A stretch of DNA of 64,000 nucleotides from Leucoraja erinacea (Eukaryota). A program made the translations under genes and the position numbers. The notes under the pieces are model-generated. The model was not told the origin of the DNA and searched no databases. It worked only from the letters and a program-made list of their open reading frames with translations. Where the stretch lies: NCBI RefSeq assembly GCF_028641065.1, contig NC_073385.1, positions 48,050,001 through 48,114,000 on the forward strand. The letters are read 5' to 3'. Of the stretch, positions 1,821-64,000 are shown one piece after another; positions within the stretch are counted from its first letter, which is position 1, and the number at the start of each line of letters is the position of its first letter.

Positions 1821-4800
1821 CCCCACAAACTTCTAGCACGCCAATTGAAAAAACGGGAAAAAGAGAATGCAATACTAAAGAGAGGAATTATTAACACTAC
1901 CCAAGGATATCAATAAAAGATTTGCTCAATTTTACCAGAACCTATACACATCTAAAACGTCAATAGACAATAATAAAGTTTCAAAATTTCTGGATAATTG
2001 TAACCTCCCTCAATTAGAATTGAGGGAACAAGAGGAACTGGTAGCACAAATTACTTCTAAGGAGATAGAAGACACAATAAACACACTTAAGAACGGAAAA
2101 ACACCAGGACCAGACGGATTCAGTAATGAATTCTATAAATCCTTTTACGACATAGTTACTCCACGCTTACAGAAAATGTATACATATGCTTTTAAAGAGC
2201 AAAGCTTACCTGAAACATTAGCAGAATCAACGATCACATTAATACTTAAAAAAGATAAAAATATAGAAGAGCCAGGATCATATAGAGCTATTGCTTTGTT
2301 TAATACGGATCAAAAAATAATAGCGGGAACACTAGCCAGAAGACTAAGCAAGTATGTTAGTAGATTGATAAATGAGGATCAAACGGGATTTATACCTAAG
2401 AGACACTCATTCAATAATCTGAGACACTTGCTTAGCATAATGCACTCGCATAAATCTCATGACCAAGAGTTTTCTATCATTTCACTGGACGCAGAAAAAG
2501 CGTTTGATCAAGTAGAATGGGATTATATGATTAAAGTATTGCAAAAATTCCAAATGGGAGAGAACTTCATTGCATGGATAAAATTATTATATAACAAACC
2601 AACGGCTAGAATACTATCTAATAATATACTATCCACGAAATTTGAATTATCAAGGGGCAATAGACAAGGATGCTCACTATCACCGCTGTTATTTGCTTTG
2701 GTAATTGAACCCCTTGCTGAAAAAGTAAGAACACACCCGGATATTTATGGTTATAATACAAAAAACTCAAATAACATAATATCGTTATACGCCGACGATG
2801 TACTATTGTACATCACAAAACCACAAATTAGTATACCAAACATATTAAATTTAATTGAGGACTTTGGATCCTTCTCAGGATATAGAATAAACTGGAACAA
2901 AAGTGAAATTATGTCGATAAAACCAAAAGACTCAACACGCCTTCGGAAATTCCCCTTTAAAATAGCCACAGAAAAATTCAAATATTTGGGAATTGAAATT
3001 ACTAGAAACTACCATGATATGTTTAAAAGCCAATTATAATCCCTTACTTAAGAAACTAAATAATTTGATTAAATTCTGGAAAACACTTCCGATGTCCCTA
3101 ATAGGCAGAATAAACACTATAAAAATGACCTTTTTACCACAAATCCTATACCTATTTCAATCAATACCTATATATCTCCCAAAAAGTTTTTCAAAAATTT
3201 GGACTCGGACATTACAAATTTTATGTGGAATTATAAATCCCATAGAATACAAAGAGCACACCTTAATAAACAAAAAGAGTTAGGTGGTCTAGCGCTCCCT
3301 AACTTTATGTATTATAATTGGGCAGTAAATATTAAAAATATGATTCACCTGCTGGACAATTCTGCCCAGCAGGTGAACTGGATTGTAATGGAAAGAGAGG
3401 ACTGCTCTCTGTGTAATATAGGAGCGACTCTCCTTTCACCAATATATCTGAATAACAAAAATTATAATAAAAATCCAATTATACACAGCACAATTAGAAT
3501 ATGGAAACAAATAAAACAAAATCTAAAATTAAGAAACCTATCTCTTTTAATACCAATAGTTAATAATCCTTTGTTTAAACCATCAATTATAGACAATTCA
3601 TTTATACAATGGGAAAGAATGGGAATCAAAACGCTCGGAGATCTGTACGAATTGGGAAAATTACTATCATTTCAACAACTACAACTGAAATATAATTTGA
3701 AAAATAATCAATATTTTAAATATCTTCAAATTCGTGATTATCTGAAATAATACACAAAAGACTATCATAATATGCCTAGACTTACTGGATGAAGCAATGA
3801 AGACAAAGGTGGAATCAGCGAATCTAATATCATACTTGTATAACATCATCTTAAACATAGAAATACTCACAACTGATGGAATTAGAAGAGACTGGGACCA
3901 AGAATTAGCTATAAAAATTTCAGCTGGGATAATCACTACAGGTGCATAAATGTTCGATCAACGTACGACATATTCTCATCCAATTCAAAACATTACATAG
4001 ACTATATTACTCAAAAACTAAAATAAATAAACTCTTCCCTAATGTCTCACCCATCTGTGATAAATGTCTGTCAAGAAGCTACCATAGCGCATTCTTTTGT
4101 TTTTTGTACAAAAATTCTGGAATGAAATATTTAACATCTTCACAAAATTAATTAAAATAAAACTGGTACCAAAACCAGAATGGATCATTTTTGGAATATC
4201 GGAAGGTAACCCTGAACTAAACGTGTTTCAGAAGAATTTACTCAATTACGGGCTAATAATGGGAAAAAAGCTCATGCTTAAATTCTGAAAAAATGCGCCA
4301 ACACCAACAATAAAAATGTGGATATCAAATATGTCTGAAACACTACATCTGGAAGAGATGAGATTCCTCTTAGCAGGCAAACCAGACCACTTCCAAAAGA
4401 CGTGGTCTACTTTTTTGGAACTATTACAAGCATAAGGTGCAATAGTAATTTTAAAAATAAATAAATAAATAAAAGGTACCAGGATCTGGCAACGGGGGGG
4501 TAAAAAAACCCAACAAAAACAAAAACAGACTTGGTTGGAAGTCCCCTTTCTGCGGAGTTTAATATTATAATAGAGTGATTGTTTCTCCTTTCTGCCACAG
4601 AGGGTAGTTGAGGCCAGTTCATTGGCTATATTTAAGAGGGAGTTAGATGTGGCCCTTGTGGCTAAGGGGATCAGGGGGTATGGAGAGAAGGCAGGTACGG
4701 GATACTGAGTTGGATGATCAGCCATGATCATATTGAATGGCGGTGCAGGCTCGAAGGGCCGAATGGCCTACTCCTGCACCTAATTTCTATGTTTCTTTTT

Positions 4801-22707: not shown

Positions 22708-22893
22708 ACTTTGTTCATTTTCAGCACCATGCACTGTATACTTAAAGTCACTTTGTACTCCATATCCAGTATTGACATTTCTTGCATCGCGCTGTAGCTT
22801 GATGACATCTTTTCTGTATGATCGGATTTTGATATTCATCTGATTACGAAATGATGATGGTGCATTCCTCAATTCCTTTTCCATTCCATCCAA
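22708..22893 (-). CDS. VTI1B: VTI1B exon 3
   Basis: LDGMEKELRNAPSSFRNQMNIKIRSYRKDVIKLQRD...ENEQS; ctag/gtaagt. Confidence 0.95.
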
Positions 22894-27764: not shown

Positions 27765-27960
27765 AACTGCAGATACACAAAAATGCTGGAGAAACAGCAT
27801 CTATGGAGCGAAGGAAATAGGCAACGTTTCGGGCCGAAACCCTTCTTCGGCCCGAAACGTTGCCTATTTCCTTCGCTCCATAGATGCTGTTGCACCCGCT
27901 GAGTTTCACTAGCATTTTTGTGTACCTTCGATTTTCCAGCATCTGCAGTTCCTTCTTAAA
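27765..27960. repeat. Inverted pair of Penelope-derived ends (second subfamily)
   Basis: cagcatctatggagcgaaggaaataggcaacgtttcgggccgaa ... ttcggcccgaaacgttgcctatttccttcgctccatagatgctg. Confidence 0.8.
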
Positions 27961-28529: not shown

Positions 28530-29185
28530 TCGTTGCGGATGGCAAGCCCGTCCTGGCCCTGCATTGACAGCAGGGATTTGCTCCATGGGCCGAGACATTG
28601 TAGCTGAGTCCCCGAGAGGCAGGAGGTGGAGTCTGGACGACCCCTGCCCTCCCCGACCCCCCGATCTTGCTGACCTTCACCCTCCGATCTCCCGGAAAAT
28701 TGCCCATTGCGGATCACCTGGATCCTCGTCCCCCGCTCTCCCGGGCCCAGGCTATCCCGGACCCCCCGCTCGTCCGGACCCTCACCTCCCGAGCGCCCGG
28801 CCATCTGCTCACAGCGGCTCGCCAGCTCCGCGCTGACAGCGCCGTACGCCTCGTGCAGCTTCTCGAACTCCTCCGAAGACATGCTCGCGGCGTCTTCATG
28901 CAACCGCCGCTGCTGCCGCATTTCCGGCCGCCGCTCCACGGGGCGTCGCTCGGCCCAGCGCCGGGCCCAGGCCCTGCCCCGTCCCGTCCCGCCTCCCTCA
29001 CCGCCACCGCACACGGCGGCTGTCACATGAAGCGCCAAGCGCTCCCACGTCGCAGCTCACACTTTACTCATACTCTGCTCATCATTCCGCGCCCCGTTAC
29101 ACCGGCGTGCGATCTCCGAGCAACCACCATCTCCCCCCCTCTGTGGCCATGGCCGCCCGCGGCGTCCTGGGAGTTGTAGTTCTTA
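28530..29185. promoter_or_regulatory. CpG island / VTI1B promoter with ZNF143(-THAP11) and ETS motifs
   Basis: High GC/CpG content; minus-strand ACTACAACTCCCAG at 29167-29180; CCGGAAAT at 28920-28927. Confidence 0.75.
28786..28882 (-). CDS. VTI1B: VTI1B exon 1 (start)
   Basis: MSSEEFEKLHEAYGAVSAELASRCEQMAGRSG, compared with human SSEHFEKLHE; A at -3; donor gtgagg. The six exons sum to 672 nt = 223 aa plus stop. Confidence 0.92.
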
Positions 29186-29204
29186 TCTGTCCGATCTTCT
29201 GGAA

Positions 29205-29912
29205 TAAAAAGACAAGAAACGACTGGAAATAATCAGCAGGTCTTACCCAGGTAGCATCTGCGAAGGGAGAAGCAGAGTTAACGTTTCAGTTTGATTAACG
29301 TGAATGAGGTGAACACAAAAGGTCGGAGTAACTTAGCGGGTCAGGCAGCATCCCTGGAGAAAAAGGAAAAGGTGAGACCTTTCTTCAGATGAGACGTGAA
29401 TGAGAACTGGGACTGAAGTGAAAGCGGGCAATGAGTGGTTCCACCGCCATCCATCCCTGGGCTTGTCTGAAGATGGGACTCAGCCCGAAACCTCACCTAT
29501 TCCTTTACTCCAGAGCTGCTGCCTGCCTGACGTATTGAGGTACTGTGACTATCCTGGGCTTGGAACCGAGCAGCAGCGGGTGTAACCCCTGCATCCCCCC
29601 TCTCCCCATCTCTCCCCCATCCAAGTCACACCAGCTTTTCGTTCTAACCTAGCTACAGCTAATAATGACCCGTTTCCTTTATCATTCATTGTTACTTTTT
29701 TGGGGTATCTTTCATTCATGTGTTCATATCTCTCTACATCATCGTCTATATCTCTCATTTCCCTTTCCCGTGACTTTCAGTCTGAACAAGGGTCTCGACA
29801 CAAAACATCACGTATTCATTTTCTCCAGAGATGCTGCCTGTCCCGCTGAGTTGCTCCAGCATTTTATGTCCATCGTCGGTTTTACCCAGCATCTGCAGTT
29901 CCTTCCTACACA
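29205..29912. repeat. Cluster of Penelope-derived repeats between the divergent VTI1B and RDH starts
   Basis: ggagtaacttagcgggtcaggcagcatccctggaga and tctgaacaagggtctcgaca..ctccagagatgctgcctgtcccgctgag motifs. Confidence 0.7.
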
Positions 29913-30030
29913 GCAGCTGGCGTTTGACAGGTGGGAACAGCGCCCGCGGGATTGTGGGTGTTGTCGTTCCACCGCCATCAATTCTCGGGGCTTTGCAACA
30001 AAGCAGCTCTTTGCATCCGCGGTTCTGGCC

Positions 30031-30107
30031 ATGTCGGTCCTATTCAGCTTTATCGGGATCTGTGCAATTGCTGCTCTTCTTCTAGCTGCTTTTGCTCCAT
30101 ATATCAG
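30031..30107 (+). CDS. RDH12: Retinol dehydrogenase 12-like (RDH11/12), first coding exon (membrane anchor)
   Basis: gccATG; MSVLFSFIGICAIAALLLAAFAPYI(R), compared with RDH12 ..MVAPSIR; phase-2 donor GT. Confidence 0.8.
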
Positions 30108-32940
30108 GTTCGCGTCTCTTATATATTTCAAGCATTGCTAATGTCATCTATTGTCTGTTATTTAATATTTCTACCACCTACAATTTTTTGTAAATAAATC
30201 GTATTTGGTCTCGGAGTAGCAAATCTGTAACTGCGGAAACGTGTATGATGTTATTTTCGAACCAAATTGAACCTTTATCACAGTTTAAAACAGTTTTATA
30301 AGTTTGATGGGCTGCTACATTTGACATAAAATATTCTTAGAGTGTGTCCTGGTCCATGCTACTTATTGAAATAAAAAGCAGAGCAGCTGCGTTTTGCAAA
30401 ATTCGTCAGTGCAAACTTTGAATACTCTAGCTTTTCATCGAATAAATTGGTGAGAGTAATATTTCCGGTGCTTTTTCATCAAATTGCGTTCCTCCCCGTT
30501 AAATAAATGTTTGACGCAATGGAATTATTCCGACAAAACACAACAAACGTCTTCCCGCGCCGAAATAAATGCACATTTTAAAAAGGACTGGTGGAACAAT
30601 TATCGTTCTGTCTGCAGAGAGCACTGCAAAGACGTTTAAAATAATGTTCAATGTGATGAGGGTTGGAGCTCCCGATCAGGTCATGGGCGGGACCTCTGTC
30701 CCTTTAATTTTGGTTGGTTACTTGGCGTTCCGGCTGTTGTTTCATTCTCTGCCCTGCGGATGAATCCCAAAATCAATTTTTTTCTTATCAAGTCGGCTAG
30801 AGGTCGTGAATGACGTGACATAACCCAAGTCCAAGGGTTCAGATAAGGTTTACCCGAATGCAGCCCGGATTAGAAGGTTTCAGCTATAGGGAGAGGGCTG
30901 ATAGACATGGAGTGTTTTCTCTGGAACGTCAGGCCGCATGGCCTACCCCTGCACCTATTTCTATGTCTATGTCTATGTCGGAGGTTGAGGAGAGACTTGA
31001 TAGAAGTGTATACATTTATGAGAGATATAGGCAGTCAGAACCATTTCCCAGGGTGGAAATTTCCAATACTAGAGGGCATAGCTATAATGTGAGAGTGGAA
31101 AGTTTAATGGAGATGTGCGGGGCAAGGTTTTGACCTGGATAGTGTTAGGCTTCTTGAATGTAGTTGGGGTGGCCCTAATCCAGCATTAGGCATATCCCAT
31201 CACTTGTCTTCCTTATAGCTGGAGGAAGAACTGAGAAGAGTCAGGAGGTCTGTCTGCATGTAGATACTCAGCCTGTGAACTGCCCTTGCAGCTCCATCCA
31301 GTTAGGTTTCTGGTCAATGGTTATCATCAAGATCCTGATGGTCGGGAACTCGGCAATCGGTGTGCAAACCATCCTCAAAACTTGTAAATAAAACAAATTA
31401 CAAATCCAAAAATCTAGATATAGAAGAGGAGACGGGGTGAAGAATTATTACTATCAATCTCTGAAAATAAAGCTGAATCTTTGCATGTCTACAGAAGCCC
31501 TCAGCCATCACTTCGATATTTTTCAATGATTATTCCAATACTTTCCCGAATAACCTCTGCTTTTCCCTCAAGAAACTTAAGGTGATCCTAAATCCTGCTC
31601 CCATTTACAAACTCGCACCGTGACTCAGTCCTGCACATACTGACCAACTCTAACAACCGATTCAACAATGCCACAAATTAAGAATTTGCTCTTTATTCCC
31701 TCAATCCTTCAGTCGCCTCATTCCTCTCTGTTCTATAAATGCAGCCCTGTAGATCTCAGATCTCTCCACTCTCCTATCCTGGACTCTGCCTCCTCTTGAT
31801 TATAATTGCTCCATCAGTGGCCATGGATTCAGTATGAAGAGGGGTCCCGACCTGAAACGTCACCTAATTGTGTTCTCCCTAGATGTTGCCTGACCCGTTG
31901 AGTTACTCCAGCACTTTATCTCCATTTTTGCATAAGCTGACTGATTCCCAAGCTCTGCAGTTACAAGGAACTGCAGATGCTGGAATTCATGCTCTAAGCT
32001 TCCCTTTCTCTCATCTTTTAAAGATGCTCATGAAAATCTAAAATATACTTATAAATTGCAGATGCTGGAAGTCTGAAATAAAATCCATTACGCTTTTGGA
32101 GGGAAAATGCTGGGTGTACTGATTCATTTGTGCATCTTCTCTGGAACCACAGAGTAAAGTTCCACCAAAAATTTCATCAACTTGAAAGGTTAACTGTTTC
32201 TATTCTCAGTAGCTGCTACCTGTCTTGCAGAGTATTTTAACCAGTGTCTTCACCTAAATCAATAAGCATTTGAACAGCTGCCTTAATAACTCTGAACGGA
32301 TCATGGTGTAAAATCTTAACATTCCCCTATGTACATTATGTACAAATATGTACTATGTACAAATCTTAACATTCCCCTTTCTACAGTTTATTTTTAAAGG
32401 TTCAAAGTGCAAGTTATTTCTGTGTAACACAGTCCACCCTTCACTCTGACATCCAATTAATGAATTAGTCTATAGCTTTGCTTTTACTGATGGTGGATGG
32501 ATTGACTTTAAGGGCATTGCATGAGACTAGTAGTAGGAGTATGTCATTTGGTTCTCCGAGGCTGCTGTGCATTTCAATATGATCATGACTATTCATCCCA
32601 AATTTGGTACTCTACACCTGCTTTCACCCTACATCCCTTGATCTCTTTAGGTATTAATACTACATCTAAATACATCTTGAATGTATTCAACAAGTTGGTC
32701 TCAACTTGCTTCTACGGGTTCATCACTCTTTGGGGTCAAGATATTTTTCCTCGTGTGTAGGAAGGAGCTGCAGATACTGGTTTATACTGAAGATAGACAC
32801 AAAATGCTAGTGTAACTCAGTGGTTCAGGCAGCATCTAATGCATAGAAGAAGTGTTCCGACCCAATCCGTCACCTATTCCTTTTCCCCAAAGATGCTGCC
32901 TGACCCATTGAGTTACTCCAGCATTTTGTGTCTATCTTCA

Positions 32941-33110
32941 TTCATACTGCTGGGTTATAAGTTATCCAAGCAAAATATGAGGTCCAATATCTCCAGTGTG
33001 CTTGTTCGCTCAATCTGGCAATGGAGGAGGCCCAGGACAGAAAGGTCAGTATGGGAATGGGAATAGGAGTTAAAATGGTTGACAATGGGGAGATTCAGTA
33101 GGCCTTTGCG
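32941..33110 (-). mobile_element. Penelope GIY-YIG endonuclease remnant
   Basis: Minus strand LPIVNHFNSYSHSHTDLSVLGLLHCQ..LIFCLDNL*PSSM. Another piece (HLIFQLGTPQPSGL) lies near 36070-36145. Confidence 0.75.
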
Positions 33111-33470
33111 GGAGACCCAGCGTAGAATACCTGTACATCGGTGAGAACAATTGTTGAGATGAGAGGGAGGGCTGACATAAACAGTATGAATAATGCTGTG
33201 TTAGGCATATCTTAAGATATCTTTGAGGATCTCACCCATGGGATAAATGCACTAGCAACAGCAAATTCGAGTAATAAACACGGATCTGCAGGTGCTGGTT
33301 AATACACAAAAGGACATAAAGTGCTGGAGCAACTCAGCAGGTAAGGCAGCATCCCTGGAGAACATAGATAGGTGATGTTTTGGGTTGAGAGCCGAAATAT
33401 ATAAGGCTGGTTTGGGGAGAGAAAATAAGTTATGGTGAACAAGTGTTTTCCAGGTTAAAGGACAGTAGGC

Positions 33471-33733
33471 AATGAAACAAAATAGTGACTACTGTTTATC
33501 ATTTAAACAGTTTTCACAGTTTCAGCAGTAAACAGTAGCCTTTATCATTTATCATCAATGCGAAAGATTCTTAAATTATTAAAAACTTAATGATAAGTTA
33601 TTTTGTCATTTAAAAAAGTTTTTAATGAAAAAATTAAGAATCTTTCTAATTTTTCAATGATAAAGGCTACTGTTTATTGCTGAAACCTTGAGAACTGTTT
33701 AAATGATAAACAGTGGTCACTATTTTTTTTCAT
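33471..33733. mobile_element. AT-rich fold-back MITE
   Basis: aatagtgactactgtttatcatttaaacag..gtagcctttatcatt versus aatgataaaggctac..ctgtttaaatgataaacagtggtcactatt (~80 bp inverted arms). Confidence 0.75.
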
Positions 33734-36699
33734 GATTGACAACTTGGGCTTGGGCTTGTTTCAATATTTGCAGATGACTCAAAGCTTGGAAACATGGTAA
33801 ACAAGGAGGAAAGGCAAGGTTTTCAGGATAGTCAGGCTGGTGGAATGGGCGGATACAGGGTAGGTGAAATTTAATGCAGAGATGGTATCTCTTGATAGGG
33901 AAAATGAGCTAAATGGCTTTCTTTGTACTGCAGAGTTTGTGTTGTAGCATTAATCTGGGAGAAAATTAAATTGCATTGGCACGGCCTGGGACAAACGTCA
34001 GCACAAATTTGACAAACTATATGGAGGAAAGCTATAGGGGAATGAAGAGGGAAATGCAACCGGCGTCTTGTATGTGGACCTTCAAAATAGAATCAACAAA
34101 GTTCATCATAATAGGTTATGTAAGCAAAATTAAACCCCATGTGACAAAACTGGCTGAGGGGCAAAAAGCAGTAGATAGTGCTGAAGGATTGCTTTTCTTT
34201 CGAGAGAGCTAAATGCTAAGTTCCTGATGTACCAGAGGGCAGAAAAGTGTGTTCCCCAAAGGCCAGTACTAGGATTTCATACTCCTTTCCAGCACATATT
34301 AATATCCATTATTTGGAAAGACAGATAATAACTACAAATTTCCAAATCCTTTGAAACTCAGAAGTATATCGCAGAGAAAACAGAAATAAAATAGGTCGAT
34401 CCATGACAAAATAATTAATTAACACATTTTGACAGAAACAATGAAATGTGGCAGGACAATTTTTAAAGAGTTATAGGAACAGGTACTGTTTTAGTTTAGT
34501 TTTTGTTAGAGATAAAACCTGAAAGCAATTTTACATAGGCCAATTAATTTACAAACCTGCACATCTGTGGAATGTGGGAGGAAACCAGAGCACCTGGAGG
34601 AAACCCACATGGTCACAGAGAGAACGTGTAAACTCCACACAGATAGCACCCGAGATCAGTATCGAATCCCGGTTTCTGGCTAGGTGACGCAGCAGCTCTA
34701 GCAGCTGCGCCATTCTGCGTCTCTTTTTTTAATCATCTAAAATCCTTGAAGGTGACAAGATAAGTAGAAAAGGCAATTTTGTTTTAAAAAAAGGAAAATT
34801 GAAGAGTAGAAAATAGCAGAGGCTAGAAATTGAAAATAAAAATGGCAAAAGTATTCAGCAACCATCCATGGGGAGAGAAACAAGGTTAATGTTTTAGATT
34901 GAAGACACTTCAATAGAATTGGAAAAGTGAGAAAACAATTGTGGAAAGAACATGGGCCATCTTTGTGATAGAGTACATATCAAAATTACTACAGCTTCCA
35001 GTAGTCCATAAGTTCATAAGTTGTAGGAACAAATTAGGCCATTCATCACATCAAGTCTACTCCGTCATTCAATCATGGCTGATCTATTTATCCATCTCAA
35101 CCCCATTCTCTTGCCTTCTCCCATAACCCCAGACACCGGTACTAATCAAGAATCTATAAATCTCCACCTTAAAAACATCCATTGACAGCCTCCACGGCCT
35201 TCTGTGGCAATGAATTCCACAGATTCACCGCGGTCTGACTAAATAAAATCTTCCTCATCTGTCTATAGGTACGTCCTTTTATCCTGAGTCTCTGGTCCTG
35301 GACTAGTAACCCTCAAACACACCAAAGAAAGTTTGAAATCATGAAAAACAATTGAAGATACATTACAGAATATTGAATTGATGTTCAACAGATGCAAAGC
35401 TAAAATGTAAAATTGCTTGTGAAAATACAGGTTGGAAATCTGAAATAAAAAACAGAAATTGCCAAATACGCTTCAGGTCAGGCAGTTTCTGTGGAAAGAG
35501 AAACAGTTAACTTTGGGTTAAGACACTTCATTGGAATTGGGAAAGTGAAAAAACAAGATTTTCGGAGAGAAAGTGGGGAGAATGGGTAGAACGAAGGGAG
35601 TACTTCTGATGGATGGTGACCAAATTAGATAATGTGCTTTATACTCCCTTGCCTGTGCTATAATACAGGTATCCAGCAGATCAGGCAATACACACAAAGA
35701 GAAAAATGGACCCAAAATCACAGATGGAGGCTTGAAAGAAATGGCTAGATCTGATACAGGTGGGAAGAAAGAGGAAGTTTTGCAAAGTTGGAGGCCATAA
35801 GATATAGGAGTAGCATTAGACCATTCGGTCCAGCAAGTCTGTTCCACCATTCGACCATGCCTGATCCAATTTTCCCACTACATCCCATTCTCCTGCCTTC
35901 TCTCCGTAACCTTTGACGCCCTAATTAATCAAGAACCTATCAGTCTTTGCTTTAGAAATACCCAGTTACCGCCCCCACAGCCACCTCTGGCTATAGAAGT
36001 TCCTGCTCATCTACATTTCTAAAAGTATGTCCTTTTATTCTGAGGCTATGCCCTCTGGTTCCAGACTCTCTGATTTTGAGTCCAGAAGGCTGTGGTGTAC
36101 CTAGTTGGAAGATGAGGTGGATCTGTTCAAGCGTGTGTTGGGCCTTCTTGTAAAGATTTTGACTTTGTCCAAGCTCTTCACTGTATCTCAGTACTTGTGA
36201 CAATGATAAATTAAACTCAACTAGTGAAGTGAGAAAGCCAAACTTGGTTAATGAGATTGTCAAAGTTTGTTTCTTAAAAAGCAGATAGCAACAAATGTTA
36301 AAAGTAAACCATGGCAATCTTTAATTGATTCGTCAAACGGGAGTGGCAAGATCTACAATGAGAAGTTCATTTCTTCTCAGGCTCCACTCACAGAACAAAG
36401 GAAAGTTAGCACAATTATACATTTTTCTTATAAAACACTCCTACCAAGTATGAATATGGCATGACTGAAATATTTTATAGCCTTTCAGAATATAAGAAAA
36501 GCTGGGTCCAAATCTAGCTCATCCAATATTAAGTTATTACTTATCTCTGGAGCATCAGCTATTTTTTTTCAGGCCCACATGAAGCTTTTCAAAAAGGGGG
36601 GTGGCATGACAGGATTACAAAAGAATGTGCGCTCATCACACATCACAAGCACGAAGTCCCTCGCGGCCGGGGTCCAGGGGCCGCTTAAGAGCCCTGGAA

Positions 36700-36876
36700 G
36701 TGCAGTGGAGAGCTAAGTTTTTTTGGCCTTCCATCACAGCAATGTGATGGATGTTTATGTAAATTATGTTGTGGCTTGGGTCTATTTGTTTGTAATGTAT
36801 GGCTGCAGAAACGTCATTTCCTTTGGACCTCAAGGGGTCCAAATGACAAATAAATTGAATCTTGTTCTTGATCTTG
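36700..36876 (+). mobile_element. Short retroposon (Rex1-like tail) inserted into a DNA-transposon-like remnant
   Basis: ccttccatcacagc..gtgatggatgtttatg core; tail aatgacaaataaattgaatcttgttcttgatcttg; TGGAAG on both flanks. Confidence 0.5.
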
Positions 36877-38959
36877 GAAGCTCTGGGGTTTTAGATGCTC
36901 TCTGGTGCATTCTGAGCCTTATATTGGAGCATTTTTGCACCAAATTTATGAGCAATATTTCAGAAATAATTTTGGTCAAGAGTAATAAGTGGGTGGAATG
37001 GGATGATTGGGATCATTGTTGTATACATTTTCTAAGATCAAGAATTGAAGTTGGCCTTGTTTTAATAATCAAGTTGTACTGTTGTAAAATGTTATGTAAA
37101 ATGCTATAAAGGAGCTTGCAAAAACTGCAAATAAAATATAAGTTTTTGCAGTAAAAAAAAACCTTGTTTTAGAAAATGTTTTGTGTGTTGATTTGATTGC
37201 CTGTTACTGTTAGACTGTGTTAGTGTGTGCATTGTACCTATAATGGATCTCCAGACCTAACAACTTCACATCACATCCATTTCAACATGGAATAGTGATG
37301 TGAATACAACATTTAGTTCGACTTCAATTTCCATCATGAAAATTGAAGTCAAACTAAATGATGCATTTACATTATCGCTTTCAAACTAACCTATTTTACT
37401 GTCATATTATTATAACAAATTCTAGTTCCATGTTGACTCATAAACAAGATCACAAATCACATTTTGAATTCTCAAACACAATGTGATTGTGATTAATTGC
37501 AGAGCTGCCAAGTTTCACCGAGCATTTCCGTATTTTGATGGCTGAAAATCAGTATTTTGTTGGGGAAATCGGTATTTCTCACATAAATGCAATAGAATAT
37601 ACTAAGCAGAAATTGGATTTTTGAAAATCAGTATTTTGCATGCAACCTCATGTATTCTCAAATATCAGTATGGAATACTGAAAATCAGCACTACTGAATT
37701 GTGAAACCAGTTTTGAAATGTGAATTTATAATTCTTGATTTTGATTCAATAACATATAGAATATATTATAACATCGCTATACTTATAAAACTCTGATCTT
37801 GCATGTGTGTGTGTGTGTGGGATCACATCTTCTCGAAAACATGTTGCGGTAACGGTAACATTTTTACATATTCCGGTAGAGATTTTTGTAATCTCACTTT
37901 CCTCACCAACTCTCTACACGTTAGGGGCAATTTTACAGAGACAATTTAACAAGTTGGGATGTGGGAGGAAACCCACAAGCTTGCAGGGAGAATGTGCAAA
38001 TTTAACACAGACAGGTCCGAGGACAGGATGGAACACAGATCGCTGGCATGTGAGGCAGCAAGTCCACCAGCTGTACCACTATATTTTATTTTCCAACACA
38101 CAAAAAATTATACGTTGATAACTTTGGCTATAAAAAAAAAAGAAACTATCCATTTTCAGTCTTAAATCTCTAAGTGACGCTATGTCCTCCTTTACAGCTA
38201 CTGTATGTTTTTGTTCAGTTCAAGACTATGCGGAAGAACATTGGCCATAAAGTTACTGCCTAAAATTGCCAGAGACCCGGAATTGATCCTGAATATGGGT
38301 GCTGTCTGTATGGAATTTGCTCCTTTTCCCTTTGATCACATGGGTTTTCTCCGGGTGCTCTTGTTTCCTTCCAAATTCCAAAGGTGCAGGAACCTTTTTC
38401 GGACCCAACCCAAAACGTAATATTTTCCTTTTGTCCAGAGATTCTGGCTGATCTGTTGAGTTACTCCAGCTTTTTGTATCTATCTTCAGTTTAAACCAGC
38501 ATCTGCAGTTCCTTCCTACACACACACGATAATATACAATAGAATTTTATTAATCCCAATAGGGAAATTGTGTGTGTTCGGTGGGCCGAAGGGCCTGTTT
38601 CTTTAAATTAAACTAAAAACACTAAAACCACAGGAAATCTAAAGAAGGGTCTCTACCCAAAACGTCATCCAATTTCTTCTATCCAGAGATGCTGGCTGCT
38701 CCATGGAGTTTCCCCGCACAATTAAAGCATGGAATAGTCTTCACCCTACCATAGTTACTGAACCAGATGCAACTACATTTAGGGTAGCTCTTTTTTCCCC
38801 AAGAACCCTTTTTTGCTGAAGTCCAAGTCAAGAGTCAAGAGAGTTTTATTGTCATGTGTCCCAGATAGGACAATGAAATTCTTGCTTGCTGCAGCACAAC
38901 AGAATATGTAAACATAATACAGAACAGGAGATAAAAGTTCAGTGTGTCTATGTGCAGTG

Positions 38960-40460
38960 TAGCTGCTGCTGCTGTTTGCGCCGGCGATGGCGGCCACGGT
39001 GTACTGCTCCTTGTTGTTTTGTATGTGTTTGTTCGTTTGTGTCATCTGTGAAAACTCTACAAAGATTATTTTCACGAGAGAGGTACTCATAAACATCGGA
39101 CCTACAGTACCTCCAAACATCGTTCCGGATTTCTCTCACTCGCTGGATTATTTGGACATACTCGTCGGCGGGGCTGTGACTGCATTCAAGGTCTTGAGAC
39201 GGAGGAGGACCCATGGGAAGCGCACTGGAGCACACACCCGACTCCGGTGACGAGGATTACGCACACCACTGCTGAGCATATTCCTGGCAAACGTACGTTC
39301 TCTCAAGAACAAAGTGAACGAACTGCAACTTGTGCATCTGACAAACAAGGACTTCTCTCGAGCTGCTGCCCTGTGTTTCACCGAGACCCGGCTTTGTGAG
39401 TCGACCCCGGACAGCGCGCTGCAACTGGCTGGCTTCCAACTTCACAGAGCGGATCGCGAAGTGGAGGCAGAGGGGAAATCAAGATGCTTCTATACCAACC
39501 AGGACTGGTGCAGCGACATCACGGTACTGTCAAATTTCTGCTTTCCCAACCAAGAATCCTTCTTTATAAACTGCAAACCCTTCTACTCTCCGAGAGAATT
39601 TACTTATTTTATTCTTACTGGAGTTTACATTCCCCCCCCCCCCCAAGCCTGCATACGTGAGGCGCAAATGCAACTCGCTGACCAGGTAATGAGGGTAGAG
39701 AGTGACTTCCTGGACTCCATGGTCATTGTTTTGGGGGACTTTAACAAAGGTAACCTCAGCCTTGACCTTCCAAAACACAGACTTCATGTTACCTGCCCCA
39801 CCAGAGGGGAGAGAAAACTTGCTCACTGTTACACGGCAATCAAGAACGCATATCGCTCTGTTCCCCGGGTGGGTCTGGGTCTCTCTGATCATTGCATAGT
39901 TCACCTTATTCCGACCTACAGGCAGAAACTAAAAGCTGCTAAGCCTGTGGTCAGAACAACGAAAAGGTGGACAAGCAAGGGCATTGAGAACCTACAATCC
40001 TGCTTTGACTGCACGGATTGGAATGTGTTCAGGGAAGCAACCACAAGCCTCGATGAGTATACGGACATTCTATCATCAAATGTGAGCTTTTGCGAGGACA
40101 GTTGCATTCCAACTAAGGCCCGGACATGGTTCAACAACAACAAGCCCTGGTTCACTGCAGAACTCAGACAGCTCCGATGGTCTAAAGAGGAGGCCTACAG
40201 GAGTGGGGGTGCAGACCTCTACAGGCAGGTCAAGTACAAGCTGAGAAGAGGAATCAGAGCTGCCAAAGAAAGGTACTCTGAGAAGTTGAGGAGCAAGCTC
40301 CCAGCTAGTGACTCTTCTTCAGTTTGGAAGGGCTTGCAAGAATTACCAGCTATAAGAGGAAAGCCCCCCCGCCCTTGTCAAGCATCTCAGGTTTGCGGAT
40401 GACACAACCCTGATTGGACTGATCCAGGATGGGGAGGAATCTGCCTACAGACAGGAAGTG
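38960..40460 (+). mobile_element. Rex1/Babar-type LINE: APE domain plus a short RT piece, internally deleted and 3'-truncated
   Basis: LANVRSLKNKVNEL, LCFTETRL, VLGDFN, SDHCIV, NNKPWF in or near ORF 39314-40402; then FADDTTLIGLIQDGEESAYRQEV at ~40392-40460. Confidence 0.88.
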
Positions 40461-40475
40461 TCTGTAGGCAGATTC

Positions 40476-41003
40476 TAATCCTAATTTGAGGAAGTTTCTA
40501 TTATTGCTTTTGAGGATGTGCAGCGTAGGTTCACCAGGTTTATTCTCGGGATGGCAGGACTGACATATGATGAAAGAATGGGTCGACTGGGCTTGTATTC
40601 ACTGGAATTTAGGATGAGGGGGGATCTTAGAGAAACATTTATGTCAAAGGATTTGACAGGCAAGATGCAAGGAAAATGTTGACGATGATGGGGGAGTCCA
40701 GAACCAGGGTTCATAGTTTAAAAATAAGGGGTAGGCCATTTAGGACTGAGATGAGGAAACATGTTTTCACCTAAAGAGTTGTGAATCTGTGGAATTCTCT
40801 GCTACAGAAGGCAGTGGAGGCCAATTCACTGGATGTTTTCAAGAGAGGGTTAGATTTAGCTCTTAGGGCTAAAGGAATCAAGGGATATGGGGAAAAATCA
40901 GGAACAGGGTACTGATTTTAGATGGTTAGCCATGATCATATTGAAAGGCGGTGCTGACTCGAAAGGACAAAATGCCTACTGCACCTATTTTTCTATGTTT
41001 CTA
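40476..41003 (+). mobile_element. CR1 LINE 3' fragment
   Basis: cctaatttgagg..gtgcagcgtaggttcaccagg..gttgtgaatctgtggaattctct..tttctatgtttcta tail. Confidence 0.9.
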
Positions 41004-41094
41004 CATTGTGTCAACGTTAAGTAAATGTATGATCGTGTATATAAACAATAAGTACAATTAAAACCTGAAGTACTAACAAATGGGCTTCTCACAG

Positions 41095-41250
41095 GTGCTC
41101 GAGTAATCATGGCCTGCAGAGATTTGACCAAGGGAGAAACTGCAGCTCAAGAGATTCGTGAAGTCACTGGAAATAAACACGTCATTGTTCGGGAACTGGA
41201 TTTAGCCAATACCAAGTCCATATACCAGTTTGCTGAAAATCTCACTCAAG
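41095..41250 (+). CDS. RDH12: RDH12-like, third coding exon equivalent
   Basis: (G)ARVIMACRDLTKGETAAQEIREVTGNKHVIVRELDLANTKSIYQFAENLTQ; acag/gtaatt. Confidence 0.93.
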
Positions 41251-42170
41251 GTAATTCATCCCTACGAGTAATATTTTTATTTATTTAATACTAACCAGTT
41301 GTGACCATTTAAATTGATCAAGGAATGTAAAAAGTTGAAATATTCTGCTGACATATCACTCAAGATTGGGATTAATTCATGAAGATAAAGTTCCAATTAA
41401 TGACAATAATATTGAACAGTTACTACATTTTAATATTTACTAACAAATCTAACAAGGTAGACAAATTATTGAAAACAAGATTTTTAAAAACAAGATAAAG
41501 AAAAAGATTTTAAAACATGCGTCTGTTAATAGAGAGTGTTGGGGATTAATTGATAAACCAAACACAATGGATATCCTGAGATCCTGAAAGAAGAAGCCAA
41601 GCGTCTCAAAAAATTCAAGGAATGCAACTTTGAATACGGGTGTGGTCATTATTATAAAAATAGTTATAGAAGTATAGGAGGCAGTGCCAAAAAACAATTA
41701 ACAAGAACTATGCTGGAAGTGAGATTATAACTATAAGAAGGGACTGAACATGCTGGGCTCTGTTCTGCAGAAAGGAAAAGAGCGAGTATGGCCCAGAAGA
41801 GTTCATTCAGATTTAAGGCTTTAATAGAGCACATGGAGAGAGGATGCCTGCCGTAGTCAAGACCAGAACGAGTGAATATAAAATGGTTACTAATACATCC
41901 AATAATGAACTCAGGAGACACTCTTTTGGCCGACAAGCTGTACAGATAAATGCCCTGGTATTTATGAAGATTAATGAAAAAGGAATGCAATAAATATACT
42001 AACCAGCTTGGATGAAGAAGCTGGTTTTGGAGTATGAAGCAGAAGGACCCATCAATTCATGGAAGGACCCATGAAGGTCATCAATTTGTTGCATGATTTA
42101 TTTTTTATATTCTCTACACTGGCTGGTCTCAGTTGCTACCTACTGGTATTTCAAAGCATCACATACAGAA

Positions 42171-42207: not shown

Positions 42208-43682
42208 ATTCCTTTTCTCCAGAGATGTTGTCTGACTCGTTACTCCAGCTTTTTGTGTCAATCTTTGGTTTAAATCAGCATCTGCAGTTGTTTCCTACAC
42301 ATCAGGAAGGGTGATAGATTCAGCTCATGAAAACCCAAATTTAATTGTGATATATTTTAGGCAAACATCTATCATGGAATGATGAACCTTTGTGAAAACT
42401 GGAACACATTTCAACCTACTGTGTAAATGCTAGCTGATATATAGAACTGTTTAGGTTATTCCCAGTTCAATTGAGGGTATGGGGAGAAGGCAGGAACGGG
42501 GTACTGATTGGGGATGATCAGCCATGATCACATTGAATAGCTCGAAGGGCCAAATGGCCTATTCCTGCACCTATTGTCTATAATTGCAGCCTCTTATGAG
42601 TTATATTCCACGAAATAAATGTACCATTAGACATTCATGTTGGAATTTTTCACCAAAGTCCACAAAACACACTCTCCTGCTGCGTTTAAAGTCAACAAGG
42701 TGGATTGATAACAGGTTAACCAATCCTCTCCATCCTGCCTGTCATGATATGCAGCCTTAATTTAAAGAGTGCTAGGCTATCATTAAAGCAACGCAGCATG
42801 TAAGTGAAGTGTACATTTCATGCCTTTATTGCTAATCTTAATGTCACTGGACATGAAGACTGTTAAAAGATTGGAAATGGTGGCTCTGAATGTCCAGGTA
42901 CAAGAGAGCCACCATGTTCACCTTCTACATGCACATTGACTCTGCCTCACTATTTCCTAGTCTCTAAGATTAATTTCTCTGCCAACTCCATTTTCCTACC
43001 CAGTTACCATATTCCGTAACTTCCTTGCTGTCCAGAATTTAAAAAAAAAAAAAATCACCCAATGCTCTATGGAGTGGAGCATCTCAAAGATTTGCATCCT
43101 CTTTGGAAGTAATTTTTTTCATTTTGAACTTCGCTCTTTGAATTACAGAATTGTAATAATTAAAGATTAGAACACAATTCTGAGCCCATAACCATGGCAG
43201 ATGAAAGAGCATCTCAGCAGCATTACCAGGATTGTTTTTGTCAGTGTCTTATTTCTTATTGCAGAGAAGCAAAACTGAGCAAAAGTGTCCAAAACCTAAC
43301 TAACCCTTGGTAATAAGGCATAAACCCTGATAATCTGTCAGCATTTCAAAGAGAGAAATCAGCAAGAAGATGTAGGATTCTAAAAATAATAATGTCCAGG
43401 TTCAGGAATAGCTTCTTCCAACAACCATCAGGCTATTGAACACTACCAACGTCCAATAAACTCTGAACTATGAGCTGCTTGTGTTGCACTAGGGATTTAT
43501 TTTTTGTTTTTATATGCATAATTTTTTTTTTATTGATCTTCATTTTCTATGTTTTTTTTAAATACTATTATCTATTGTGTACTATGTTCACAAACCTGTT
43601 GTGCTGCTGCAAGTAAGAATTTCATTGTTCTGTTTTGGTTTATGTGACTTATTTTCTACTGCCCAATTCTATTTAATGACAG

Positions 43683-43787
43683 AGGAAAAAGTAATCAGCA
43701 TTTTGATCAACAATGCCGGAGTGATGATGTGCCCCTTCACGAAGACAAGTGATGGGTTTGAGATGCAATTTGGTGTAAACCACCTGG
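43683..43787 (+). CDS. RDH12: RDH12-like, fourth coding exon equivalent
   Basis: [36 protein letters not shown] (SDR NNAG motif). Confidence 0.95.
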
Positions 43788-46265: not shown

Positions 46266-46475
46266 GACATTTCTTGTTGACCTTCCTGCTTATCAATCTC
46301 ATTAAAAGATCAGCACCCGCTCGCATTGTTAATATATCGTCCTTGGCTCACAACTTTGGCCGAATCAATTTTAATGATCTGCAGAGTGAGAAGAGTTATG
46401 ACGGGAGTTCTGCTTACTGCCAGAGCAAACTAGCAAACGTACTGTTCACTCGGGAATTGGCCAAGCGTCTGAAAG
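46266..46475 (+). CDS. RDH12: RDH12-like, fifth coding exon equivalent (catalytic YxxxK)
   Basis: [49 protein letters not shown]. Confidence 0.96.
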
Positions 46476-46994: not shown

Positions 46995-47184
46995 ACACCA
47001 AAGTCACAGTGAACTCTGTGCATCCAGGCTGCGTGAAATCAGAACTAACCAGACACTCCTGGGTCATGGCTCTGGCATGGAAGATTCTCACTTTCCTCAT
47101 CAAAACACCAAAACAGGGCGCACAGTCCAGCATATACTGTGCAGTTGCTGAAGAACTGGAAGAGGTTTCTGGTAAACATTTCAG
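46995..47184 (+). CDS. RDH12: RDH12-like, sixth coding exon equivalent
   Basis: (D)TKVTVNSVHPGCVKSELTRHS..IKTPKQGAQSSIYCAVAEELEEVSGKHF(S). Confidence 0.95.
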
Positions 47185-47441: not shown

Positions 47442-49000
47442 CTAGATCGTGGGATCCGTTGGGTCCCGTCCCCCAATGGGGGGGGGGGGGGGGGGGGGGG
47501 GGGCACCCTCAGGGCACCCTCAGCATCACAGGGGAGGGCTAGTCCCTGAACACAATATTCCACCACGGACCCATAGGTCCCAATGCTCACCACTCCCTAG
47601 AGAGGAAGGGGGGGTAGAGAGGGAGGGGGAGGGGGGTAGAGAGAGAGGGAGAGGGGCAGTGAGGGTGGGGGTAGTGACGGTGGGGGTAGAGACCCAACCC
47701 CATCTCCCTCATCCTCCTCCCCTCACTCTCATTCCATGCTCCAGGACCAACCCAAGTCGTAGAGCAGCGCCAGGGCCTGGAACTCGGCCTGATTCTCCTA
47801 CTCGACCAAGCCCTGGCTGTAGACCTAGGTTTATCCTTGGGTCCAGCAGCAGCCCCTGGCTGTCAGCTCAGCCGCCGCCTGGGCTCCAGTGCAGTTCCGA
47901 CTTCACCGTCCCTGAGCCTGGACCCAAGCTTCGTTCCAGCGGCGGCTCCTTTATTGGCCCCTGTCATGGCACCGTCCCAAGCCCAGGGCTCGGCTCTCAC
48001 TCCAGCTCGAGCACCTGGCTCAGCTCCAGCCAAGGCCCACGGCGCCACCCTCGCCACCAGGTGTCGGGCGTCGGCAGCCGTCGCACGAGCACTGGAGTAC
48101 CCCTCCCTCCCAGTGTCCCGTTCTGCCTTGCAGGTTTTTTTTCCCGAATTCGGTGAGTTTTCGGGCAGGAGTGAAGGAGGGGGTAGTGTTAGAGAGGGAG
48201 GGGGGGTAGAGAGGGAGGGGAGGGAGAGAGAGAGGGGGTAGGGGGTAGAGGGGGAGGGGGTAGGGGAGAGAGACGGGGGGAGGGGGTAGAGAGGAAGAGG
48301 GAGAGGGTAGAGAGGGAGAGCGACGGGGGGAGAGGGTAGAGAGGGAGAGGGTAGAGAGGGGGGAGGGGAGGGGGAGGAAGGTAGAGAGGGAGGGTAGAGA
48401 AGGAGGCGGGTAGAGAGGGAGAGGGGCAGAGATGGAGGGGGGGTAGTGACCCCACATCATCTCCCTCCTCATTTCTCTCATCCTCCTCCCATTTCCTGCC
48501 GCAGCACCTACCCAGGTAGTAGAGCAGCGCCAGGGCCTGGAACTTGTCCTGGTTCTTGTACTTGACCCAGCCCTGGCTGGTTCTTGGTCGGTTTCTTTCT
48601 TGGTCATGGCCCCAACCCAAGCACCTGGCTCTGCCCTCACTCCAGCGTAGGCCCAGACCCAAGTGAGACTGTAGGCGGGCATGGACCCGAGGACCAGAGG
48701 ACTGCGTCAAGCAAAGGGAGTATTGGTTTCCCAAAAATTCCAGCGTGGTTCCCCCCCCCCCGAAGAGCCGGAGTACATTGTGATGTAATTCTTTTTTTTG
48801 GCAAAACAGTTGAGTCTGAGATGTGTTTAAAATTTCAATAATCAATAACTTTGGGAATATAGGTGGAAATGCGACGGGAATATGTTTATGACCTCCACAG
48901 GAATAAAAGTGAGTAGAATTTGTGAAAATGGGAAGGCTGTGGCCTAGCTTTTGTAAAGAAATGAGAATCAACCCAGACAGAGACGAATGAGCCAAAATGG
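47442..49000 (-). mobile_element. Non-autonomous Helitron with purine tracts and duplicated cargo
   Basis: Minus-strand 3' end GGGACCCAACGGATCCC-ACGAT-CTAG|T, the same terminus family as 21184. The 5' boundary is uncertain. Confidence 0.65.
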
Positions 49001-49677: not shown

Positions 49678-49780
49678 CGACTGCCAACCAGCATTTGTGG
49701 CTCCACAAGGTAAAAATGATGAAACAGCCAAGCAGTTGTGGGATGTCAGCTGCAAACTTTTGGAAATTCAGTGGGACTGA
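49678..49780 (+). CDS. RDH12: RDH12-like, last coding exon
   Basis: DCQPAFVAPQGKNDETAKQLWDVSCKLLEIQWD*; AATAAA at 49814 and 50199 downstream. Confidence 0.93.
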
Positions 49781-59100: not shown

Positions 59101-59885
59101 GTTGGTGGCAAGAACAAGGAGGCAGATTATTATCCCAATGGTGTCAAATTAGGAAAAAGAGAAGTGCAACAAGACCTGGGTGTCCTTGTACAGAGGTCAA
59201 TGAAAGTAAACATGCAGGTACAGCAGGCAATGAAGAAAGTTAATGGCATGTTGGCCTTCATAACGAGAGGATTTGAGTATAGGACAGTAAAGAGGTCTTC
59301 TGCAGTTTTACAGGGCCCTGGTGAGACCACATATGGAGTATTGTGTGCAGTTTTGGTCTAATTTGAGGAAGGACATCCTTACTGGTGAGGCAGTGCAGCA
59401 TAGGTTCACAAGGTTAATCCCCGGAATGGCAGGACTGTCATATGAGGAAAGATTGTAAAGACTGGGCTTGTATTCACTAGAATTTAGAAGGATGAGAGGA
59501 GATTTTATAGAAACATATAAAATTATAAAAGGACTGGGCAATTAGATACAGGAAAAATGTTCCCAATGTTGGGCGAGTCCAGAACCAAGGCCACAGTCTA
59601 AGAATAAAGGAGAGGCCATTTAAAACTGAGATGAGAAAACACTTTCACCCAGAGAGTTGTGAATTTGTGGAATTCTCTGCCACAGAAGGCAGTAGAGGCC
59701 AATTAACTGGATGAATTTAAAAGAGAGTTAGATAGAGCTCTCGGGGCTAGCGGAATCAAGAGATATGGGGAGAAGCGACACGGGTTACTAATTGTGGATG
59801 ATCAGCCATGATCACAATGAATGGCGGTGTTGGCTCAAAGGGCCAAATGGCCTACTCCTGCACCTATTTTCTATGTTTCTATGTT
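56169..59885 (+). mobile_element. Near-complete CR1 ORF2 (APE + RT), disrupted
   Basis: DIVGITEMWLQ..RGGGVALLV, EPLGGSDHN, GKSCLTNLLEFFE, YMDFQKAFDK, SGVPQGSVL, KFADNT; (tttctatg)n tail. Confidence 0.93.
56617..57358 (-). mobile_element. GC-rich non-autonomous retroposon inserted in CR1
   Basis: Interrupts the CR1 sequence ggtaagaagacacta|atgggagttatc; hairpin ccatcacagtgag..ctcactgtgatgg; gaatgacaataaatag tail. Confidence 0.65.
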
Positions 59886-61349: not shown

Positions 61350-61572
61350 CTGAAAAAAAAGGATGAATGTCTTAATCAATTCACGGTAATATTACAGCAG
61401 ATATTTAAATGTTTAAATTTAGCTGTACTGTGACCCCCACATCTAATATGTGTTTAGTACAGCTGGATGGGTTAGAGTTGCATTTAAATATTGTCCTCCT
61501 AGGTGGAAGCAGAAGATATAACAGCTTTCAAGACCAACTGATCATTGGTAATTACATTTACATTGTTCTCAC

Positions 61573-61755
61573 CTGTGAAAGGTGCTCATCAGCACCTTCA
61601 ATAAATCGGAGGAGGAGGTTATCAGTGTCGTCACCACTAGCAACTCCTGATTCACTCACACATTTCAGCAACTGTCTGATTTGACAAACCTTGTGCTGCT
61701 GCAGAAGATGTTTTGCTGCTTTATCATAGACAGCAGCTGCATCCAACTGAAAATC
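61573..61755 (-). CDS. ZFYVE26: Spastizin, antepenultimate exon
   Basis: DFQLDAAAVYDKAAKHLLQQHKVCQIRQLLKCVSESGVASGDDTDNLLL.. Confidence 0.95.
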
Positions 61756-64000
61756 CTGAAGATAAAAATAAATAGGCATTAAGGAATACAAACTGGACCA
61801 AAATATGTGACATTGTGTTGTACGGTTAGAATAAAACTTGACAACTGGAACTGTATCTGCAGCAGAAAATTTGCAGGAGATATTGAAGAACTTTCAATGG
61901 TAGTACATGAGATCATGAAATAGCTGACAAGAAGACATCAATTTGAAAATGTCAGCGCAAGAGCAAGGAGTAAGACTGCTATAAATTCCTTTACACATAG
62001 TGTGGAACATGATCTGCCTGATGTCTGTGGGGATGTTACATGGAAACAGTTTATTTTCCCAGACATTTTTTTTCCCTGCTGGTCAGTTTCTAGAGTAACT
62101 TTTAATTGCATCTCTAATTCCCGATTGAAAATAGCATTTTAACCAACTCAGTCTGTGTAATGTGAATAGTGTTTCCATCAAATCGCAATTATTCACCCAT
62201 CACAAAATGTTCAATTAGCATTATGGAATCACATGTTACAGCACAATCCTTGTAATACATAATTCCATAAATACTGTGCATGCCACATCTTTATAGTCCA
62301 ATCATTTTCATATCCTTACCTTTTCCATGGTTTCCTGAAAATCTATGTAAATTATATTAGCAGTATTCTATTTATCTAATGCCTCTTATTTCATAAGATT
62401 ATTGATCTGTTATTTGGGAATATTTTTGGACTGCCCCCAATTTAACTTTCCCTTTAGCACTTAAGAATTTCCCCCTGTATTGAATTATCCCCGTCTTAGT
62501 TATCAGTATCTGTAACTGGATAAGGATTATTACACCTTGCATCTTTTTCTATTGTAAAGAACAGTGCTGGAGTAACTCACCGGGTTTGTGTCTTTTTGTA
62601 TCCTTTTTACGTTTTTCTTTTTAAAACTTAAGAGTTTACAGTGTTTTCTCCCCAGCTTCCCTCAAAATCTGCTCATGTACACATTGTGTATTAATGATTA
62701 GGCCTCTTAATTTTTTTTTGTATCATCTTCCATTCCATTCCTTACTGCACCTACTTTTTGGGAGTTATACAATCGCAGTAGCCATCACCTCTGAACAACA
62801 GGTAGCAACTTGATTTATCTTGCATTTCACCCAGTTGGCAGTTTCTTATTACTGTCTCTTATCTGGAGGAGATAGTTGAGGCAGGTCCCATTGCAAAGTT
62901 TAAAAACATTTAGACAGGAACATGGATAGGACAGGTTTCAAGGGATATGGGCCAAATGCAGGCAGGTGGGACTAGTGTAGATAGGACATGTTGGCCGGTG
63001 TGGGCAAGTTGGGCCAGCTTCCACACTGTAAGACTTTATGACCATCAGTTCTAACTAGATTGTCCTTTCCCCTACACATGTGTTTTTTGCCCTATTTTTT
63101 GTATTGTTAATTTTCTGTTATATTTCCTTGTTTTAAATGCCATTCTTATCTGTGAATTTAATGTTTGTTTCCTTTCAATTAAGTTTATTTTTCTATTTTC
63201 AAGTTTGTTTGTATCTCCTGGTTCAACCACCAAACCAAAGATGTCTTCCTGCCTTTTCATGCGTCAGTAAATTTAAGAAGGTTCCTTTTCGATCTATTTA
63301 CCCAAAACCCAATCTCATACTAGATTACAAAAATGTACACATTTTTCAGGGGACATTAACAGACATCTGGTCAAGCAATCTGCATCAGTGTTCAAACCTC
63401 TCCTCTTGCCTCCCTCCCATCTTCCCTCTAATCTCGTATGTTGATCCCTTCCTTTTAACTGTATCAACACTACAACCACTCCCTGTGGTAGGAGTTCCAC
63501 ATTTTCACTGCTCTTTTGAAATAAGTTGCTGGTATAAAATGTTTTGATGATAATTAATAGCTGACCCTTCATACTGCTGTCCTCTATTTATGTTCTTCCC
63601 TTCAAGTCGAACGTTCACTCGGCATCTACTCTATCAGAAGCTTTTACATTTAAAAACCTGTTACAGGTCTCAGCCTTTTCTTGTACAAAAATGACTCGGT
63701 GTTCAGCTTTTCGCAGTATGGATGCCCTCACAATTACAGTATTATCTTCATAGGTGTTTTTTGTACGCTCTCTACTAATTCCACACCTTTTGTTATAATG
63801 TGACAGATATAAATGTATGCAGTGCTTCAAGTCTTGTGTAGGAAAAGTTCAAATTTATCCTTCTGGAAATCGGTCTAATGTTTGGTTTGCTTTTTTGTGG
63901 ACTGTTAATCAGTGGTACAATTTGCAGTGTATTTATAATCCATGGTTTAATTTCCTTCTACATCACATAGATGTTATAAGTCATAAGCAATCCTATTCTT

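Follow-up and report, generated by a model that had tools for sequence, protein, structure and literature searches.

In short-chain dehydrogenase/reductase (SDR) enzymes, the glycine motif of the Rossmann fold is required for cofactor binding. For the retinol dehydrogenases, the portion of PMC7022914 available to us covers the enzymology of mammalian RDH11 and RDH12, including the NADPH-dependent retinal reductase activity of the human enzymes, and a title cited there links RDH12 to Leber congenital amaurosis. Here we describe the RDH12 gene of the skate Leucoraja erinacea as it stands in a window of 64,000 nucleotides (nt; assembly GCF_028641065.1, NC_073385.1:48,050,001-48,114,000; assembly G000 and contig C9 below). 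Its closest described relatives are the vertebrate RDH12 proteins of SDR7C, among them those of Amblyraja radiata (XP_032882806.1) and Rhinoraja longicauda (XP_078262476.1). The window gene is identical to the Amblyraja protein at 276 of 278 residues (two differences), has intact NNAG and YxxxK motifs and lies between genes of the VTI1 and ZFYVE26-like types, but the window assembly lacks the 119-nt exon that carries the TGxxxGxG motif. The L. erinacea RefSeq record XP_055496725.1 (P0021, 249 residues, 'retinol dehydrogenase 12') is identical to exons 3-7 of the window gene from the first methionine, indicating that public annotation already has this truncation, and its name carries no flag of a defect. 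A third comparison is with the missing exon, one of the two commonest kinds of false gene loss that PMC9516821 reports for older assemblies. As in the cases given there, one exon has no alignment or blast match in the assembly, the 5' region is repeat-rich and the other exons are intact; the errors in that paper were proved by a better assembly and mapped reads, whereas the evidence here is indirect. We confirm that a 119-nt exon encoding TGANTGIG is missing from this assembly, and the gap, real as it is in the assembly, is probably not a property of the species.

The six coding exons of RDH12 in the window lie on the plus strand and have canonical splice sites. Exon 1a (30031..30107, 77 nt) encodes a hydrophobic N-terminal segment, 25/25 residues of which match Amblyraja protein P0022, and ends CAG/GT in phase 2; the ratio of observed to expected CpG around it is 0.98 (29900-30700). 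Exon 3 (41095..41250) starts in phase 1, exon 4 (43683..43787) carries the NNAG motif at 43709, exon 5 (46266..46475) holds the catalytic serine and YxxxK (YCQSK at 46415), and exon 6 (46995..47184) is followed by the coding part of exon 7 with its TGA (49678..49780), near which AATAAA/ATTAAA signals lie at 49814, 50199 and 50208. Exons 3-7 give an open, stop-free translation in which both family features, NNAG and the catalytic Ser/YxxxK, are present. An earlier sequence-only reading of this stretch had described six undamaged RDH exons with canonical splice sites, the first ending in phase 2 and the next, at 41095, starting in phase 1, and comparison with orthologues exon by exon agrees with it throughout. 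Between exons 1a and 3 lies a repeat-rich interval of 10,987 nt (30108..41094, plus strand) which would be expected to carry exon 2 and does not. Judging from the 319-residue orthologues, the missing exon would be 119 nt long and would encode residues 26-66, including TGANTGIG; the Pfam adh_short match on P0021 (E 6.8e-25) begins at profile position 34.

The best homologues of the window gene are cartilaginous-fish proteins named RDH12. A tree of 27 rows places the gene with the two other skates (100/99), within a clade of elasmobranch proteins that bear the name RDH12 (99/97), and its end branch is only 0.004; the tree holds no mammalian RDH11 or RDH12 rows and leaves RDH12 undistinguished from a shared RDH11/12 pro-orthologue. 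The TGxxxGxG motif is present in 16 of 16 named cartilaginous-fish homologues, and exon 2 is kept in all three Amblyraja isoforms and in Rhinoraja isoform X1. Thus, both the RDH12-like identity and the guess of a skate source made from the letters alone are borne out by the homologues and the tree, and in the comparison with related batoids that had been proposed, two other skates retain the exon. A 249-residue Rhinoraja isoform X2 was considered as a natural case of exon-2 skipping and rejected; exon 2 contains no methionine, and a non-coding first exon would presumably yield the same protein. Models of catshark and smooth-hound RDH12 isoforms (P0009 and P0016) lack the 35-residue exon 4 with NNAG, in frame, which suggests exon-4 skipping in sharks.

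Searches for the missing exon gave the same result at every scale. When 11 orthologous exon-2 peptides were compared with both strands of the window by tblastn, only noise was obtained (best 19.8 bits, E 0.39), and a six-frame scan of the window contained no TGxxxGIG. A hidden or diverged exon 2 in the interval was also rejected: of 14 open AG..GT segments in the correct phase, not one is RDH-like. These results uphold the sequence-only claim that the glycine-motif segment is absent between 30107 and 41095, and translation likewise upholds its claim that direct splicing of exon 1 to exon 3 causes a frameshift and a TGA at 41159-41161, which falls at codon 48. The tblastn search with the N-terminal segment that it had suggested was extended to the assembly, and exon 2 is in neither. 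The full-length Rhinoraja protein matched all six exons on C9 and not exon 2, and the 41-residue Amblyraja exon-2 peptide matched other loci only (11 of 11 candidates scored), so that no unplaced contig with exon 2 was found in G000 with either query. Two of the matches to this peptide are strong, on C8 at 63% and on C2 at 81%, and each is exon 2 of another multi-exon gene. The TGxxxGxG cofactor motif that marks RDH12 within SDR7C is therefore missing for this gene from window and assembly alike. Short protein fragments carrying the skate exon 2 with intron flanks were tried as well; among the best 120 of 138 matches, the top one being 83% (whale shark), none matched the interval. The window contains no run of N.

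Sequencing runs provide a view of what lies upstream of exon 3. The search listed 24 runs, 20 of them with the last exon and its 3' flank and none on record as RNA ('RNA?' labels are guesses), and contigs were placed over 40390-41340 only, from four runs (X1, X4, X6 and X8). Exon 3 is covered by contigs of X1 and X8 and by one spliced contig, X6 record 24, which comes from the same organism (study P4); it is uncovered in X4, which carries no evidential weight. X6 record 24 is 312 nt long and on the minus strand, and its positions 3-160 match 41093-41250 with 0 mismatches, leaving 2 nt beyond the exon-3 donor and 152 nt upstream of the match. Its orientation was fixed through X6 record 21, whose 33 spare letters correspond to a 33-nt loose end before 40690. 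The contig thus ends at the exon-3 boundaries, as expected of a spliced molecule, and a depth of 0.24 in the bin 41062-41093, equal to one base, agrees with a match that stops at 41093. The intron acceptor is CAG (41092-41094) and exons 1a and 1b, an alternative first exon described below, both end in CAG, so a direct splice from either one would extend the match to 41092. This use of the match end was checked on the 24 loose-end rows listed (21 by 16 distinct checks, plus 3): in all of them the first unmatched letter differs from the window, indicating that the alignment extends to the last matching base. The stop at 41093 therefore means that the exon joined to the 5' side of exon 3 in this contig ends in AG preceded by a letter other than C, and is neither first exon. 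Exon 2 ends in Arg-Gly in 12 of 12 orthologues compared and in GAG in both paralogues inspected, and an exon 2 ending in GAG would predict a match stop at 41093. The 154 nt upstream of exon 3 would fit exon 2 together with 35 nt from a first exon, and from this length and the match end, not from the letters of the overhang, we infer that this is what the contig contains.

The interval itself offers one candidate breakpoint. Upstream of exon 3, an inverted 3' tail of about 120 nt from a repeat like a long interspersed nuclear element (LINE) (38827..38945, minus strand; family label assumed by us; partial second copy at 43572-43631) abuts a dispersed LINE-like element on the plus strand (38953..40462), which we take to be Rex1/Babar-like. 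The latter is about 88-92% identical to other copies, has an internal deletion at 40372-40376 and lacks about 0.7-0.8 kb of its 3' end; Pfam gave zero matches on its open reading frame (ORF). At its end lies a perfect 17-bp fold-back with a 5-nt loop (40437..40475, no strand), a candidate deletion or mis-join point, and right after this a fragment of a repeat, presumably CR1-like, begins in mid-element (40481..41003, plus strand; 78% identity with 59358-59881, a copy that extends further upstream). This junction at 40437-40481 is about 620 nt upstream of exon 3, and a break near 40.46 kb can be proposed as a candidate only. The fold-back was rejected as proof either of an artefact or of a deletion, since similar hairpins recur: perfect hairpins with arms of at least 14 bp number three in the window, and other loci totalling about 190 kb have five more. 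A twin-priming inversion for 38827-40462 was unsupported, since the inverted tail shows no match to five more complete copies of the plus-strand element. Over 40979-41340, contigs of X1 and X8 show 0 and 1 differences from the window, and among the pieces listed none bridges 40462-40481, which is uninformative because repeat copies swamp depth and break contigs. Over 40670, X1 has a single contig, which departs from the window at 4/95 sites, versus 0/362 in the unique flank, X1 not being known to be the sequenced animal; the closest other genomic copies of this stretch are at most 85% identical (best 40 of 1617 candidates scored). This divergence may point to an error in the local consensus or to a second haplotype.

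We consider it most probable (roughly 0.58) that exon 2 was lost in assembling a repeat-rich intron, and that animals of this species still make the full enzyme. A stretch of the intron with exon 2 would have been dropped during assembly, and not in the sequenced animal, and the intact product would, by analogy with the Amblyraja and Rhinoraja orthologues, be an NADPH-dependent retinal reductase of SDR7C with 319 residues and a membrane anchor. This is favored by the lack of decay in the remaining exons (no stops or frameshifts besides the two residue differences from Amblyraja), by the 154 nt in the X6 contig that belong to neither first exon, by the motif in every named cartilaginous-fish protein and every Amblyraja isoform compared, and by the divergence of the X1 contig at 40670. 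It is also consistent with the difficulty of assembling the little-skate genome, which, in the part of PMC10115646 at hand, is reported to have been hampered by 1.6% heterozygosity and young, recently expanded LINEs, with noisy long reads. Several observations weigh in the opposite direction. The assembly has no N gap at the interval, the RefSeq model is itself truncated, and the gene is so nearly identical to that of Amblyraja that too little time has passed for the lack of decay to be telling. The 3'-truncated LINE, the 17-bp fold-back and the mid-element start of CR1 resemble a real repaired break. Exon 2 was never seen directly, the argument from the overhang turning on one base in one contig of depth 7.7 from one study, and a cryptic exon could mimic the pattern, given that among 25 GT sites in 29.0-41.1 kb scoring at least 7/9 on a crude donor consensus, 7 end in AG preceded by a letter other than C. 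Next in likelihood, though tentative, is that a real deletion allele segregates, the assembly having kept that haplotype and exon 2 being present in other animals. The break would have removed the LINE 3' end, exon 2 and the 5' part of the CR1 copy, and repair would have left a short templated fold-back; because the glycine motif is needed to bind the cofactor, the allele would be a null, giving either the shifted frame that stops at codon 48 or a 249-residue product without the cofactor-binding start of the Rossmann fold. The anatomy of the junction, the ungapped assembly, the heterozygosity reported for the little skate in the same part of PMC10115646, and the X1 contig, which could be the other haplotype, all suit such an allele, and the X6 contig is compatible with it. 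However, other copies of the LINE (L034, L036, L037 and L038) commonly carry internal deletions and interruptions, the recurrence of hairpins makes the junction undiagnostic, and nothing ties exon 2 to it.

Loss of RDH12 throughout the species appears unlikely. Under such a scenario, this skate would, since its split from Amblyraja, have fixed the LINE-junction deletion that kills RDH12 and would clear bleached retinal through an older RDH12-like paralogue, a course of events that we regard as improbable. RDH12 would then be a unitary pseudogene of very recent origin in a skate with rods only, an equally doubtful proposition, with residual transcripts made through a cryptic exon and retinal reduction covered by the intact paralogue on C2 or by RDH13/RDH14-like enzymes. 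Rod-only skate retinae are noted in the accessible part of PMC12361510, and several cone genes are reported as pseudogenised in the little skate in the part of bioRxiv 10.1101/2025.07.30.667746 available to us; the absence of exon 2 from the whole assembly, the truncated RefSeq model, the cryptic donors in 29.0-41.1 kb and a paralogue with all motifs intact also speak for it. In opposition to this, the gene is intact in Amblyraja and Rhinoraja, the X6 contig differs from the product of exon 1 spliced to exon 3 that should dominate after such a deletion, secondary decay of the remaining exons is absent (a weak test, as divergence is small), and the main text of the same preprint contains no word starting 'retinol'. 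We judge, roughly and without computing it, that the contig favors the presence of exon 2 over a fixed loss with a cryptic exon by about 10 to 1. It is highly improbable that exon 2 lies elsewhere in the assembly, on an unplaced contig or in an inverted piece, or was overlooked in the window. The whole-genome searches do score first-look candidates only, but both strands of the window give noise only, and the recovery of paralogous exons at 63% and 81% indicates that a near-identical exon should have ranked top, so this explanation is largely refuted. Of the three explanations put forward in the sequence-only reading, recent loss of function is thus disfavored by the X6 contig and by two skates with exon 2, while assembly error and a haplotype-specific deletion both stand and are not told apart.

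If exon 2 was dropped in assembly, the public 249-residue little-skate RDH12 model is without its cofactor motif, and screens for gene loss in the rod-only retina could misscore RDH12 as lost. A real allele or a fixed loss would give a classical vision model a natural null of a gene linked to Leber congenital amaurosis, and the paralogue on C2 would be a candidate back-up enzyme; a fixed loss in particular would be a natural vertebrate knockout of a gene whose loss blinds humans, in which gene loss reaches from the cone cascade into the visual cycle. Among the papers listed, in a coverage that leaves out subscription papers and the supplements to the preprint on the skate retina, none reports that a cartilaginous fish has lost RDH12, and none joins 'skate', 'Leucoraja' and 'RDH12'; the part of PMC11979771 available to us does not mention RDH.

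The RDH12-like paralogue on C2 (G000:C2:53088006-53101332, 53.088-53.101 Mb; L027-L029) has exons 2-7 intact in one open frame of 290 residues. It shares the exon phases of RDH12 and has TGANTGIG, NNAG and YGQSK all present, but it is identical to Amblyraja P0022 at 167/280 residues, branches outside the clade that unites all 25 RDH12 rows in the tree, and its first exon was not located. From its sequence, it is a possible candidate for a back-up retinal reductase. Two small contigs, G000:C921 and G000:C149, show near-identical patterns of RDH-like matches (51% and 39%, with equal scores) and may be unpurged haplotype duplicates.

Upstream of exon 1a, between the starts of the VTI1B-like gene and RDH12, lies the alternative first exon 1b (29149..29250, plus strand), which has an ATG at 29149 and ends CAG/GT; its 5' start is unmapped. 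In two of its frames it resembles the N-terminus of Amblyraja isoform X1 (P0018). Measured from ATG to donor it is 1 base longer than the X1 model implies, so that its ORF and the RDH ORF are out of frame here and exon 1b is likely to be non-coding. Within it, at about 29166-29182, lies a motif that is presumably the ZNF143/SBS element of bidirectional promoters.

The upstream neighbor is a head-to-head gene for a VTI1-type v-SNARE, with its first exon near 28.9 kb and an exon at 22777..22893 (G000:C9:48072777-48072893, minus strand) that scores over the cut-off for PF05008; we take it to be VTI1B-like as opposed to VTI1A-like. Downstream and tail-to-tail, an ORF at 61561..61893 (minus strand) contains an exon of a ZFYVE26-like gene (PF25569, E 3.4e-11). 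These flanks presumably match the neighborhood of human RDH11/RDH12, and the comparison of sequences supports the assignment of the window gene as the cartilaginous-fish RDH12 orthologue, situated between VTI1B-like and ZFYVE26-like genes.

Other repeats were observed within the window and beyond it. Intron 6 holds a 26-nt G run and a long purine-rich low-complexity tract (47478-48450) that is prone to consensus error. Imperfect inverted repeats at 33472-33733 (80% over about 260 nt) and 37298-37372 (85% over 75 nt) are possibly like miniature inverted-repeat transposable elements. A perfect palindrome with arms of 30-46 bp, in which a short repeat is joined to its own inverse, recurs at three loci (window 27793-27891, L032:2725-2788 and L043:57-124). 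Finally, fragments of a LINE reverse-transcriptase ORF, frameshifted into several pieces, occupy 1879-3750, with a PF00078 match (E 3.4e-40) on 1879-3036.

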